Assembly: GCA_036444275.1 (NCBI GenBank)
Contig: JAZGAD010000009.1
Location: 1-22,100, forward strand
Length of the DNA stretch: 22,100 bases
Direction: 5' to 3'
Source: Candidatus Hydrothermarchaeales archaeon
Lineage (GTDB): Archaea; Hydrothermarchaeota; Hydrothermarchaeia; Hydrothermarchaeales; JAZGAD01
Shown: in pieces, positions 1,717 through 20,100 of the stretch
How the letters are laid out: every line of letters starts with the position of its first letter
How positions within the stretch are numbered: the first letter of the stretch is position 1
Position numbers and translations under genes: made by a program
The notes under the pieces: generated by a model
Seen by the model: the letters and a program-made list of their open reading frames with translations, nothing else
Databases searched by the model: none
Told to the model about the DNA's origin: nothing

Positions 1717-1879
1717 CCCTAATTCCATTGCCTAGTTCTAATGGTTCTTCTTAATACTTTTGAAATGCTCTAATAAGCGTCCGCTCCTTTTTCCGCCAGT
1801 AGACTCATCATACCAGCACTATGTTTTCCTAAATCAAGCATCTTTCCAAGAGAAACATCGGAAGACAAGGTTGGGCTTT

Positions 1880-1895
1880 CAAAAAATATATATAA
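1880..1895 (+). promoter_or_regulatory. Archaeal BRE/TATA promoter for the downstream RNA candidate
   Basis: CAAAAAA-TATATATA-A. The TATA box (1887-1894) lies at -31..-24 relative to G1918, the first base of the terminal stem. Confidence 0.6.
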
Positions 1896-1917
1896 TACAT
1901 GGTAGTACACTTTGATT

Positions 1918-2073
1918 GCGGATTTGGAAAGGTGTTCAGTGACGGTTTGTCTTTGATAGGTTGCCACTGGCGACGGGTCCTATCCTCCGGGATAAGATTC
2001 GCCTGAAAAGAAGCAACGGTCCTCGGCCTTCGGGTCGGAGAACGGTGTGACTTTTCGGCTTTGTCAAGTCCGC
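1918..2073 (+). ncRNA. Putative structured non-coding RNA (~156 nt, three-way junction), family not recognised
   Basis: Closing stem 1918-1927/2064-2073. Long arm UUCAG/CUGAA, UUUGUCUU/GGGAUAAG, GAUAGG/CCUAUC. Second arm capped by a C(UUCG)G tetraloop (2028-2033). G-U pairs favour the + strand; TATA box upstream and T-tracts downstream. Confidence 0.65.
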
Positions 2074-2075
2074 GC

Positions 2076-2106
2076 TTTTCATTTTGGGCTTCGGTTTTTT
2101 CTTTTT
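2076..2106 (+). terminator. Oligo-T archaeal terminator region
   Basis: TTTTC-ATTTT...TTTTTT-C-TTTTT immediately after the RNA closing stem. Confidence 0.5.
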
Positions 2107-2256: not shown

Positions 2257-3579
2257 ATGGTAATGGACTTAGAAAATATGGTTGAAAAAATCTCTAATGA
2301 GAGCGGATTGGAGGGGAAGGAGATCAAGGCAAAAATCGAGGAAAAGAGGGAGGAACTCGGAGGACTGATAACCCCTGAGGGTGCCGCCCATATCATTGCA
2401 AACGAGGTAGGTGTAAACCTCTTTGAAGGCGCTAGTAAGGCTAGTGATCTAAAGATAGAGAACATAATCCCCGGAATGCATAGTGTGAATATAGTTGGAA
2501 AAGTACTGAAGGTATACCCATTGAAGGAATTTGATAAGAAAGACGGCTCCAAAGGCACCTTAGCTTCTTTAATCCTAGGAGATGACACGGGCAGTATACG
2601 GGTGTTATTCTGGGGCAGTGAAACATCGCTTCTCAATGAAGGTAAGATAAAAGAAGAAGACATCTTAAGGATAGAGGACGGCTACAGCAGGGAGACGCAG
2701 AACGGGGAGGCTGAAGTCCATATAGGCTCTAGATCCAGTGTTAGTGTAAATCCAAGCGACGTGGAGAAAGGGGACATAGCTACACCTATGCATATTCCTG
2801 CACCGATCCCGCAAGAGGTACAGAAGAAGATCTCAGAGTTAGAAGAGGGTATGAGTAGTGTTGGTGTGCTCTGCAAGGTGGTACGCATACACGAGGTGAG
2901 GGAATTCGAAAGAAACGATAAGAGTAGGGGTAAGGTAGTGAACTTGAGTATCGCTGATAAAACCGGCAGGACAAGGCTTGTGCTGTGGGGCGAGGACGTG
3001 GAGCTCGTAGAGGCGGGAAAGATTAAGAAGGGCACTACTATTAGGGTGAATAAGGGTTATGTGAAAGCCCGCTACGGAGAACCAGAGCTAAACATTGGAA
3101 AGTACGGCGAGCTAATCCTGGACCCAGATGGAGAGGTAGACGTAGATATACCCGATCTCTTGATACAGAAGACGCTGTTGGGAGAACTGGAGAACGGCGA
3201 TAAAGCTGAGATAAGAGGCGCTCTAATGGAGCTCTACAGCCCTACGGTCTTTGATAGAAAGAGTGGCAAAGGCATGGTGGTCAACGCGTTGATAGACGAC
3301 GGCACCGCATGCATGCGGGCTGCATTCTATGATAAGCTTGCTGAGAGGCTATTGAACATTCCTCTAAAAGAGTTAGACGCTGAGGGGGATGTAGATATAT
3401 CTAGATTAGACGAGAGAAGGAAAGAGATCCTTGGAAAAGAGATTACCGCCACTGTGAATGTCAAGCATAGTGATTTCTCTGACAAGAATGAATTGGTCGT
3501 ATTGGACCTTGACTTTAACCCAGACCCACGGGAAGTGGTCAAGGAATTACTTAAGGAAGCAAAAGCGAGGGAGGAATAG
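2257..3579 (+). CDS. rpa: Replication protein A (multi-OB-fold ssDNA-binding protein)
   Basis: N-terminal '[18 protein letters not shown]' segment, two repeated OB folds ('[13 protein letters not shown]', '[13 protein letters not shown]') and a C-terminal OB fold ('[13 protein letters not shown]'); directly upstream of radA. The start could be 2263. Confidence 0.88.
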
Positions 3580-3583
3580 AGAA

Positions 3584-4513
3584 ATGGAATTAGAAGAACT
3601 ACCCGGAGTAGGAGCAGCTACCGCTGAAAAACTGAGGGACGCGGGCTTCAAGACCGTGGAATCCATAGCGGTAGCGAATAGTAGTGAACTTAAGGAAATC
3701 TCAGGCATGGGGAATGGCGCTGGCCGAAAAGTGATAAATGCGGCCCGGGAGATCCTACAACTAGGATTCATGACAGGCAGCGAAGTCCTGGAAAAGAGGG
3801 AGAACCTTAAGAAGATAACCATGAGTAGCAACACCCTAGACCAGTTAATGGGAGGCGGAATAGAAACACAGGCTATAACTGAGCTATTCGGGGAATTTGG
3901 ATCAGGAAAAACACAAATATGCCATCAGCTGGCAGTCAACGTGCAACTTTCTGAGGATCAGCACGGACTGGAGAAAACAGTTCTCTATATAGACACTGAG
4001 AATACTTTTAGGCCTGAAAGGATCGTCCATATGTCCCAAGCTCTAGGTCTGGATCCAAAGCCAATCCTTGACAACATAGTCGTGGCTAGAGCTTATACCA
4101 GCGACCACCAGATGCTCATAGTGGAACAAGTTGAGGAGATGATAAAGGAGAAGAACATCGGACTGATAGTGGTTGACTCCCTTACATCCCAATTCAGATC
4201 AGACTACAGTGGCCGGGGCATGCTCGCTGATAGGCAACAGAAGCTCAATAGACATATGCACACACTCCAAAGAATCTCAGATATCCACAACCTCGCAGTC
4301 GTAGTCACCAATCAAGTTATGAGCAGGCCTGACTTCTTCTTCGGAGACCCCACAGCACCTATAGGCGGGCACATCGTAGGGCATTCATCTACATTCAGGG
4401 TATATCTGAGGAAATCCAAGGGCGGGAAGCGCGTAGCTAGGCTCATAGACTCTCCAAGTCTACCAGAAGGAGAGGCAATATTCTCGGTGATAGGAGACGG
4501 AATCAGGGATTAA
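3584..4513 (+). CDS. radA: DNA repair and recombination protein RadA
   Basis: N-terminal HhH '[15 protein letters not shown]', Walker [22 protein letters not shown], '[11 protein letters not shown]', 'PIGGHIVGH'. Start reassigned to ATG 3584, after the GAGG-rich end of rpa. No intein. Confidence 0.97.
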
Positions 4514-5319: not shown

Positions 5320-6096
5320 ATGGGAGTCACAATAACTATTGCTTCAGGAAAGGGAGGTGTCGGGAAGACATCCTTAACAGCTAATCTAGGTATCGCTTTA
5401 GCAGAGTTCGGCAAGGACGTAACCCTCCTAGACGCTGATATAGAAATGGCGAATTTAGAGCTTCACCTCGGCTTGGAAGGGATGAAGGTAACCCTGAACA
5501 ATGTCCTCTCCGGAGATGCCGAGATAGAGGACAGCATCTACCAAGGTCCCGGGGGGGTAAAGGTTATCCCGGCAGGAATATCCCTAGATGGACTGAAAAA
5601 TGCTGATCCAGACAGGCTCAAGAGTGTATTACGCCAGCTTATGGATATGACGGATATCCTCCTCATAGATTCTCCGCCAGGACTAGGGAAGGCTGTAATC
5701 ACTGCACTGGCAACTGCCCAAGAAGTAATCCTCGTTGTAATTCCCGAGATATCCTCTATGTCTGACGCATTAAAGACCAAGATCGTGGCTAAAAAACTTG
5801 GAACCCACATCCTTGGAGCCGTGATAAATCGAGCCGGCTACGATGAGAAGACCGACCTCACCACACCCGAAGTAGAAGCCATCTTGGAAGTAAATGTCCT
5901 TGGCGTGATTCCTGAGGATGTCGAGCTCAGGCGCTCTACCACCTTTGGTCAGGCCATAATGATCAGACGGCCTGATTCTCCTGCCGCTATAGCAATAAAG
6001 CATCTGGCCGCAGAGCTGATAGGGGAGAAATACATCTATGAGGGGCCCAAAGAGGGCATGCTAAGACGATTCTTGTCAGGTCTGCTAGGAGGATGA
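5320..6096 (+). CDS. minD: Archaeal MinD-family ATPase
   Basis: ASGKGGVGKT, DADIEMANL, IDSPPG and a C-terminal amphipathic tail 'MLRRFLSGLLGG'. TATA-like TTTATAAA at 5282-5289. Confidence 0.9.
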   Translation: MGVTITIASGKGGVGKTSLTANLGIALAEFGKDVTLLDADIEMANLELHLGLEGMKVTLNNVLSGDAEIEDSIYQGPGGVKVIPAGISLDGLKNADPDRLKSVLRQLMDMTDILLIDSPPGLGKAVITALATAQEVILVVIPEISSMSDALKTKIVAKKLGTHILGAVINRAGYDEKTDLTTPEVEAILEVNVLGVIPEDVELRRSTTFGQAIMIRRPDSPAAIAIKHLAAELIGEKYIYEGPKEGMLRRFLSGLLGG

Positions 6097-19872: not shown

Positions 19873-19908
19873 ATAAGCCCGTTATGTGCTTTGGAAATAA
19901 AAATGAAA

Positions 19909-19983
19909 CGCGCCCGGGGGGATTTGAACCCCCGATCTACAGCTTAGGAGGCTGTCGCCATATCCAGGCTTGGCTACGAGCGC
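19909..19983 (-). tRNA. tRNA-Arg (anticodon CCU), intronless, CCA not encoded
   Basis: GCGCUCG/CGGGCGC acceptor stem, D-arm with GGAUA, anticodon arm ACAGC-CUCCUAA-GCUGU, T-arm GGGGG-UUCAAAU-CCCCC, discriminator G. Confidence 0.97.
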
Positions 19984-20100
19984 ATACTCGTTTTATCGTT
20001 TTCGGAAATCCTCAACATATGTATAAGGGACCGTGGCCCCATATACCTACCCATCCATACTGCCCTATATCCTTATTATTCTATTAGCTTTTTGATACTT

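Follow-up and report, generated by a model that had tools for sequence, protein, structure and literature searches.

A structured RNA gene upstream of rpa-radA in a Hydrothermarchaeales archaeon, probably of a family outside Rfam

What occupies the gap between a ParA/CbiA-type gene (961–1716) and the OB-fold rpa gene (2257–3579) on contig JAZGAD010000009.1 from Candidatus Hydrothermarchaeales archaeon (assembly GCA_036444275.1)? An earlier note on the first 22,100 nucleotides of this contig, the whole stretch analyzed here and referred to as the window, had proposed that this gap upstream of rpa-radA holds a stand-alone noncoding RNA (ncRNA) gene of an unrecognized family. We find that positions 1918–2073 on the + strand very probably constitute an independently transcribed, highly structured ncRNA gene whose family lies outside Rfam 15. 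Counted from one outer end of its closing helix, P1, to the other, the RNA measures 156 nt, an extent given by full-length matches to three covariance models (R1, R2 and R3), by the fold, and by covariation.

Homologues and a conserved four-armed fold

The + strand of the RNA folds to −63.9 kcal/mol with a z-score of −3.50, and none of 200 shuffled sequences does as well, whereas the − strand reaches −46.2 kcal/mol with a z-score of −2.28, a value equaled or bettered by 4 of 200 shuffles. The preference of the structure for the + strand described in the earlier note therefore holds, and the folding z-score that it had put forward as a check comes out in favor of an RNA. By itself, the window sequence makes an RNA gene plausible, short of proof.

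A blastn search of 40 relatives returned a single homologue, 71% identical, in a genome of the same family and another genus (G001). This copy has a different upstream gene, retains promoter-like and terminator-like flanks, and folds with a z-score of −5.74. Of 35 genomes of the order, 6 yielded full-length copies with model R1, built from two sequences, and 14 yielded a total of 17 copies with R2, built from six. R3, built from 17, raised the number to 22 copies spread over 17 of the 38 phylum genomes; among the 21 genomes with a completeness of 90% or more, 8 have a match. The window copy scores 169.3, 134.9, and 118.3 bits with R1, R2, and R3, respectively. Five genomes carry two copies each, among them the source genome of the window (G000), where the second copy (C12:53676–53828, − strand) scores 90 bits with R3 and is 47% identical to the first. 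Pairwise identity among the copies ranges from 30 to 67%, excepting two near-identical pairs.

The 22 copies, whose alignment underlies the counts that follow, share a fold in which the 10-bp P1 and a short P2 lead into a tight four-way junction with three arms of roughly 15–20 bp, adjacent helices being separated by 0–1 unpaired base. The 5′ end GCGGATTTGG (1918–1927) had been proposed to pair with the 3′ end TCAAGTCCGC (2064–2073), and this helix is conserved: the ten pairs of P1, whose 3′ strand reads UCAAGUCCGC, are formed in 99.5% of cells and nine of them show compensatory changes. Its terminal pairs, G-C, C-G, and G-C, are nearly invariant, with G1-C present in 22/22 copies. The suggested extension of this stem by AAAG/CUUU is two bases out of register with the conserved P2, in which AGGU (1930–1933) pairs with GCUU (2058–2061) in 91.7% of cells, with compensatory changes at all four pairs.

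Arm A (1936–1970) is a long imperfect hairpin with the tip GUC-UUU-GAU (loop 1952–1954), and its helices 3 and 4 together comprise 15 pairs, paired in 75.3% and 89.2% of cells, of which 14 are compensatory. Arm B (1972–2003) is a hairpin capped by C(UCCG)G in the window (loop 1986–1989) and by C(UUCG)G in most other copies; its helices 5 and 6 hold 13 pairs, 95.5% and 88.6% paired, 12 of them compensatory. Arm C (2005–2056) begins with the base helix GAAAAG/CUUUUC, above which sits a purine-rich symmetric internal loop followed by the upper helices and a C(UUCG)G cap. This is the UUCG-capped arm that the earlier note had recognized, with C(TTCG)G at 2028–2033 (loop 2029–2032), and it too is conserved (helices 7–10; 14 pairs, 85.9–100% paired, 13 compensatory). 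The internal loop of arm C places AA opposite GA in the window copy and occurs as AA/GA, AA/AA, GAA/GAA, or CAAA/CAAA across the alignment, while the apical loops are of the UUCG, UCCG, or CUUG type throughout and of the GNRA type in none. Conservation of the sequence itself is found at the GCG/CGC end of P1, the junction core UUGAAAG ... CUUUCGGCU, the arm A tip GUC-UYY-GAY, the tetraloops, and the purine-rich internal loop of arm C.

Covariation across relatives had been named in the earlier note as a check on the RNA, and by our own pair counts 52 of the 56 pairs show compensatory changes. Of all cells in the alignment, 90.8% are paired, compared to 67.0% after shuffling, and none of 500 shuffles is as high; when the pairing partners are slid by 1–3 columns, pairing falls to 30–50%. 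The picture was similar in smaller alignments of 6 sequences (93.5% paired, 33/57 pairs compensatory) and 17 sequences (91.9% paired, 50/57 compensatory). Because these main alignments were fitted to the covariance model, we also made a structure-blind alignment of the 22 copies with MAFFT and folded it with RNAalifold. P1 reappears in the result, as do the bases and tips of arms B and C and, for arm A, the tip; 25 of the 31 predicted pairs are compensatory.

One part of the earlier description does not survive. It had drawn a single long arm through 1935–2007, made of the helices 1935–1942/1999–2007, 1946–1953/1989–1996, 1955–1960/1979–1984, and 1961–1965/1969–1973. This arm can be drawn in the window sequence but is not conserved among the 22 homologues, where 58.6% of cells pair compared to 56.8% after shuffling and 39 of 500 shuffles do equally well, figures that are somewhat biased against the arm by an alignment fitted to the rival fold. 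We therefore reject the long arm, whose region is occupied by two separate hairpins, arms A and B.

Promoter, terminator, upstream element and distribution

The sequence flanking the fold carries the signals of an archaeal gene. Ahead of the RNA (1880–1896, + strand) lie an A-rich stretch resembling a transcription factor B recognition element (BRE; 1880–1886) and the TATA box TATATATA (1887–1894), a placement that fits a transcription start at or adjacent to G1918. In 21 of the 22 copies a TATA-like octamer starts 28–33 nt 5′ of the initial G, so that the spacing described for the window recurs in its homologues. The 3′ flank (2074–2106) consists of an unpaired purine, G2074, and T-tracts at 2076–2079, 2082–2085, 2095–2100, and 2102–2106, which we read as archaeal oligo-T termination signals. 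Here too the reading of T-tracts directly 3′ of the RNA extends to the homologues: four or more consecutive T begin no more than 7 nt past the last C in 20 of the 22 copies. The first 3′-flanking base is A in 16 copies, G in 4, and T in 2. Together, the distances of the TATA box and the T-tracts suggest a primary transcript that runs from the first base of P1 to the first T-tract and probably extends a few U beyond 2073, a reading that leans on general knowledge of archaeal promoters and oligo-T termination. The recurrence of both signals at fixed distances bears out the proposal of a stand-alone gene, and the GC content of the RNA (54%) exceeds that of the genome (46.5%).

Aligned with MAFFT, the 110-nt upstream regions of 17 copies reveal a further conserved element of about 55 bp, at 1824–1876 (+ strand) in the window. 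It contains TTCC half-sites at 1826–1829 and 1844–1847, GGAAG at 1860–1864, AAGGT at 1867–1871, and GG at 1873–1874, and its consensus ahead of the TATA box is TTCCA-N5-TCCA-N3-G-N4-CA-N2-GGAAG-N2-AAGGT-N-GG. The element is common to most copies, across six families, and is also present in the later-found copies of G010, G028, and G022; it is absent from four diverged copies (G000b, G001b, G009b, and G027a). To our knowledge, conserved elements upstream of the BRE are unusual in archaeal RNA genes. The conservation of this one suggests that a dedicated factor controls transcription of the RNA, and the element is probably a transcription-factor site devoted to the RNA family. A small protein encoded on the reverse strand of the element was considered and rejected, as there are stops in the frames and no common start or length; neither reading of the element yields a consistent frame. 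In the source genome, GGAAGnnAAGGT followed by an AT-rich box occurs at 8 sites with at most one mismatch, of which only C9:1860 precedes the window RNA, and an inverted-repeat scan returned 14 scattered sites; no genome-wide regulon emerged from these pattern and inverted-repeat scans.

How widely is the RNA distributed? Leaving the source genome (family f1) out of the count, R3 matches occur in 1/1 genome of f1, 2/2 of f4, 2/2 of f10, 3/4 of f5, 2/3 of f6, 5/6 of f9, and 1/11 of f2, and in none of f3, f7, f8, f11, and f12. With stricter filters, R3 gave no match in four other archaeal phyla, each represented by 151 genomes (604 in total), and 0 of 5 single genomes were matched; a blastn search of phage and plasmid collections with the RNA likewise gave no match. 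A degenerate pattern scan of viral contigs returned at least 120 stretches. When 80 listed loci were screened with R3, the only match among them was L198:1669–1826 (−), on an IMG/VR contig of 4019 nt, at 25.2 bits. We did not accept it: the match lies inside an ORF (open reading frame) of 154 aa, its arm A is much longer and its arm C much shorter than those of the family, and it is probably due to chance, the locus having been pre-selected by a family-derived pattern. As far as searched, the RNA family appears restricted to one archaeal order.

Comparison with known RNA families

The earlier note had judged the family unrecognized and had found none of the signatures of 5S rRNA, signal recognition particle (SRP) RNA, RNase P RNA, tRNA, guide RNAs, or riboswitches. 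The Rfam covariance scan that it had suggested agrees, as does a search with ARAGORN. At gathering score, the 4227 models of Rfam 15 match only a tRNA at 19909–19983 in the whole window. At E ≤ 10, the region 1700–2300 yields only STnc350 at 2196–2223 on the − strand (E 1.1), outside the RNA, and the 19 other loci yield one Pistol match (E 9.6) in one copy and nothing recurrent; the lone Pistol match is at chance level. ARAGORN likewise reports only a tRNA-Arg (19908–19984) in the window, and the tRNA model RF00005 matches no copy of the RNA that was scanned.

The window RNA resembles 5S rRNA, SRP RNA, and RNase P RNA in being a stable RNA of small to medium size whose ends pair in a closing stem. 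However, 5S rRNA has a three-way junction in place of the four-way junction seen here, archaeal SRP RNA is about 300 nt long compared to 156 nt, and none of these models matches the RNA locus. Moreover, the source genome contains ordinary versions of all three, with RNase P RNA at C39:17535–17832 (201.4 bits with RF00373, a family marked by the P4 pseudoknot and the regions CR-I and CR-V), 5S rRNA at C28:80221–80341 (85.7 bits with RF00001), and SRP RNA at C53:86491–86807 (209 bits with RF01857), and hence the window RNA is not a divergent form of any of them.

Guide RNAs can be rejected as well. C/D guides carry the C box (RUGAUGA) and the D box (CUGA) close to their ends, and H/ACA guides have hairpins that contain a K-turn and a pocket for pseudouridylation, along with a 3′ ACA. 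On reading the 22-copy alignment we found no RUGAUGA and no terminal CUGA, nor an ACA near the 3′ end, which is CGC with the variants CAC and UGC. The internal loops, at 1–4 nt, are too short for guide pockets, and the Rfam scans, whatever guide models they cover, gave no such match on any copy.

Three further systems offer instructive likenesses. Y RNA and bacterial YrlA, whose partner is Ro60/TROVE, are protein-bound scaffolds acting in trans, with a long stem formed by the ends and a module with a tRNA-resembling junction. The window RNA shares with them the stem of both ends, the junction module, and the mode of action that we favor below. Rfam scans of the copies, however, show no Y-RNA match, and a search for the TROVE domain (PF05731) found it in 0 of the 38 phylum genomes, while the controls Deinococcus radiodurans and Bacteroides thetaiotaomicron were positive. 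With no TROVE protein in these genomes, a role in a Ro ribonucleoprotein is excluded.

The HgcC-type orphan RNAs of thermophilic archaea are stand-alone, structured, richer in GC than their genomes, and preceded by an archaeal promoter, and their function is unassigned. The window RNA is likewise a stand-alone, GC-rich structured gene with an archaeal promoter; it differs in its four-armed fold and in its lineage, and the Rfam scans at E ≤ 10, whichever families they cover, gave no match to an RNA of this type. With the hairpin ribozyme and other RNAs built on a four-way junction, the window RNA has in common a perfect junction and internal loops in neighboring arms that could dock on each other. 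It differs from them in that no model matches it and no cleavage-site signature was identified, and it is a chromosomal gene with paralogues rather than a satellite RNA.

No description of such an RNA came up in the full-text literature searches made. Very few archaeal structured RNA families beyond the universal ones are known to us, and the searches made turned up none from the uncultured phylum Hydrothermarchaeota. The novelty is that of an RNA outside every known family, not that of a demonstrated new mechanism.

Possible role and genomic setting

What might this RNA do? Our preferred proposal, which we hold tentatively and partly by analogy, is that it is a stable RNA working in trans, which binds protein as a scaffold or decoy. 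Its recognition would depend on shape, as provided by the junction and by the purine-rich loop inside arm C, and not on base pairing to targets; recognition by shape is proposed because there are hardly any conserved single-stranded bases. Junctions and purine-rich internal loops are typical sites of protein or tertiary contact. The paralogues are old and have diverged in sequence while retaining the shape, and the transcription signals of the gene look strong and regulated. Clean covariation at 30–67% identity, paralogues, and an upstream element in combination usually mark an RNA with a specific molecular partner.

Several points weigh against this picture. No result names a protein partner, and the scaffold or decoy role rests on the scarcity of conserved single strands together with analogy. 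The transcript, with its ends and abundance, is predicted from signals in the sequence. The alignments behind the pair counts were fitted to the model and so favor its structure, the structure-blind alignment backs only 31 pairs, and the slide and shuffle controls leave some effect of shared ancestry. Finally, R3 finds no match in 21 of the 38 phylum genomes, including 10 of the 11 in family f2, most of which are more than 90% complete; in genomes with no match the RNA is either dispensable or has diverged past detection.

A more ambitious form of the proposal, to which we give a low probability, is that the RNA is the core of an undescribed, lineage-specific ribonucleoprotein or RNA machine in which the four-way-junction shape, and not the sequence, is the functional unit. 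A dedicated upstream factor would control it, and the paralogues would serve separate partners. The cross-shaped RNA, of tRNA size or larger, might then be bound by junction-binding or tRNA-handling proteins, or its junction core might itself act as a catalyst or sensor. The two forms differ in what would be gained: a plain protein decoy would add one new family, whereas a junction that is the functional unit would represent a new kind of RNA. The small size and stability of the RNA would allow direct pull-down and structural studies with no need to grow the organism, and metagenomes can already be annotated for it with the covariance model.

The stand-alone gene with its promoter, terminator, and conserved upstream control element would also suit a trans-acting small RNA that targets mRNAs through a conserved base-pairing seed, and paralogues are a feature of many such families. 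The structure makes this improbable. With 56 pairs in about 156 nt, the RNA is nearly completely paired, and its apical loops are closed tetraloops of the UNCG type, so that a seed is hard to place; each junction or internal-loop site offers 1–4 unpaired bases, and no conserved single strand of seed length is visible.

Equally improbable in our judgment is a ribozyme or trans-acting ligand sensor with the four-way-junction core as active site or pocket. Conservation is indeed focused at the junction (UUGAAAG ... CUUUCGGCU) and at the purine-rich loop of an adjacent arm, a layout that recalls junction-organized ribozymes and aptamers. However, very few conserved unpaired bases are available to form a pocket, no metabolic gene set is associated with the RNA, and the 19 loci show no ribozyme or riboswitch match beyond the single chance-level Pistol hit.

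The comparison with tRNA is more involved. As in tRNA, four helices meet at one junction, the ends of the molecule form a stem, a GC-rich helix end is followed by an unpaired purine, and the gene stands alone with its own promoter. It is conceivable on these grounds that the RNA is a tRNA-like or acceptor-minihelix mimic that is handled by tRNA enzymes (RNase P, tRNase Z, the CCA-adding enzyme, or an aminoacyl-tRNA synthetase) and has a role outside translation: beyond its cloverleaf topology, its near-invariant end of G1-C, C2-G, and G3-C is followed by one unpaired base that is A in 16 copies and G in 4 of the 22, and the tRNA-Gly(CCC) and tRNA-Leu of the source genome also start with GCGG and end with CCGC-A. 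We nevertheless regard the mimic as slightly less probable still than a ribozyme or sensor. The RNA is twice as long as a tRNA, its closing helix has 10+4 bp rather than 7, and base 8 is paired with covariation. There is no seven-base loop and neither a T-loop nor an anticodon loop; three tetraloops take the place of the D, anticodon, and T loops. CCA is not encoded, ARAGORN and the Rfam tRNA model are silent, and the GCG/CGC end may be just a stable helix end with a purine start site. A tRNA with introns is rejected as well, since no detector responds and the arms do not fit.

The position of the RNA in the window raises the alternative of a cis-acting 5′ leader, such as a riboswitch or attenuator of the rpa-radA operon. 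The RNA precedes rpa on the same strand at a distance of 184 nt, and in G004 and G012 a HEAT-repeat gene on the same strand starts 11 and 27 nt past it. Against this stand the T-tracts directly 3′ of the RNA and the absence of a match to any riboswitch family. In addition, rpa has its own TATA box, TTTATATA at 2223–2230, 27 nt ahead of the ATG at 2257. Elsewhere the RNA adjoins genes for top6A, PIN, HEAT-repeat, BioY, JAB, ATP-grasp, flavin reductase, metallo-beta-lactamase, and RACo proteins, and neither rpa nor radA lies beside any other copy in the loci examined. Of the 18 copies that could be scored, 10 have a convergent ORF as their nearest downstream neighbor. These differing neighbors and convergent ORFs argue that the RNA is not an rpa-radA leader, which we consider very unlikely; they agree with the earlier note, which had held that the RNA was not the 5′ untranslated region of rpa and had called a functional link to RPA/RadA speculative. 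A link to recombination through rpa-radA is rejected on the same ground, as no other examined copy adjoins these genes. An all-versus-all comparison of flanking ORFs found a top6A-like gene upstream of 3 of the 22 copies and a convergent BioY-like gene downstream of 5 of the 22, a partial synteny that we read as inherited gene order.

That there is no RNA gene at all, and that the locus is a DNA palindrome, a short protein gene, or the relic of a mobile element, is the least credible alternative: two ORFs of 65 and 48 aa do overlap the RNA on the − strand, and the family has several copies per genome, but the compensatory changes include many G-U pairs that are valid on the + strand only, the copies within a genome are old (G000a and G000b are 47% identical) rather than recent insertions, the upstream region and the first 20 nt of the RNA hold no consistent reverse-strand ORF, no conserved frame with substitutions in a codon pattern was seen, and the blastn searches of phage and plasmid collections are empty.

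The surroundings of the copies also yielded several minor observations. The second copy in the source genome (L032:1501–1653, −) lies 87 nt upstream of a same-strand gene of the RACo family with Fer2, RACo linker, middle, and C-terminal domains, and the arrangement in G001 is the same (L117). Both copies of the source genome thus adjoin accessory genes of the CO-dehydrogenase/acetyl-CoA pathway (RACo and a cooC-like gene), which may be a coincidence. The window contains two genes for P-loop ATPases of the ParA/CbiA/Mrp type, at 961–1716 and 5320–6096, and the label cooC for the former rests on general CbiA, AAA_31, and ParA matches only. Taken from the first ATG, at 3458, the radA ORF shares 122 nt with the end of rpa, whose stop lies at 3579. 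For most RadA relatives the alignment begins only near residue 40–45, so the true start of radA is probably at ~3575–3590, directly after rpa.

Three tRNA genes are clustered at L118:122–496, about 1 kb upstream of the G009b copy, and no such cluster was seen near the RNA in the other loci scanned. The tRNA-Arg gene of the window carries the anticodon CCU and lies on the − strand (19908–19984), scoring 65.1 bits with RF00005. In the source genome as a whole, ARAGORN reports 37 tRNA genes, or 41 with the intron search, with acceptors for Asn, Ile, and Trp not among them; the genome is 81% complete, and this gap may reflect missing contigs only. With their very high GC content in a genome of 46.5% GC, the acceptor stems of the tRNAs point to growth at high temperature.

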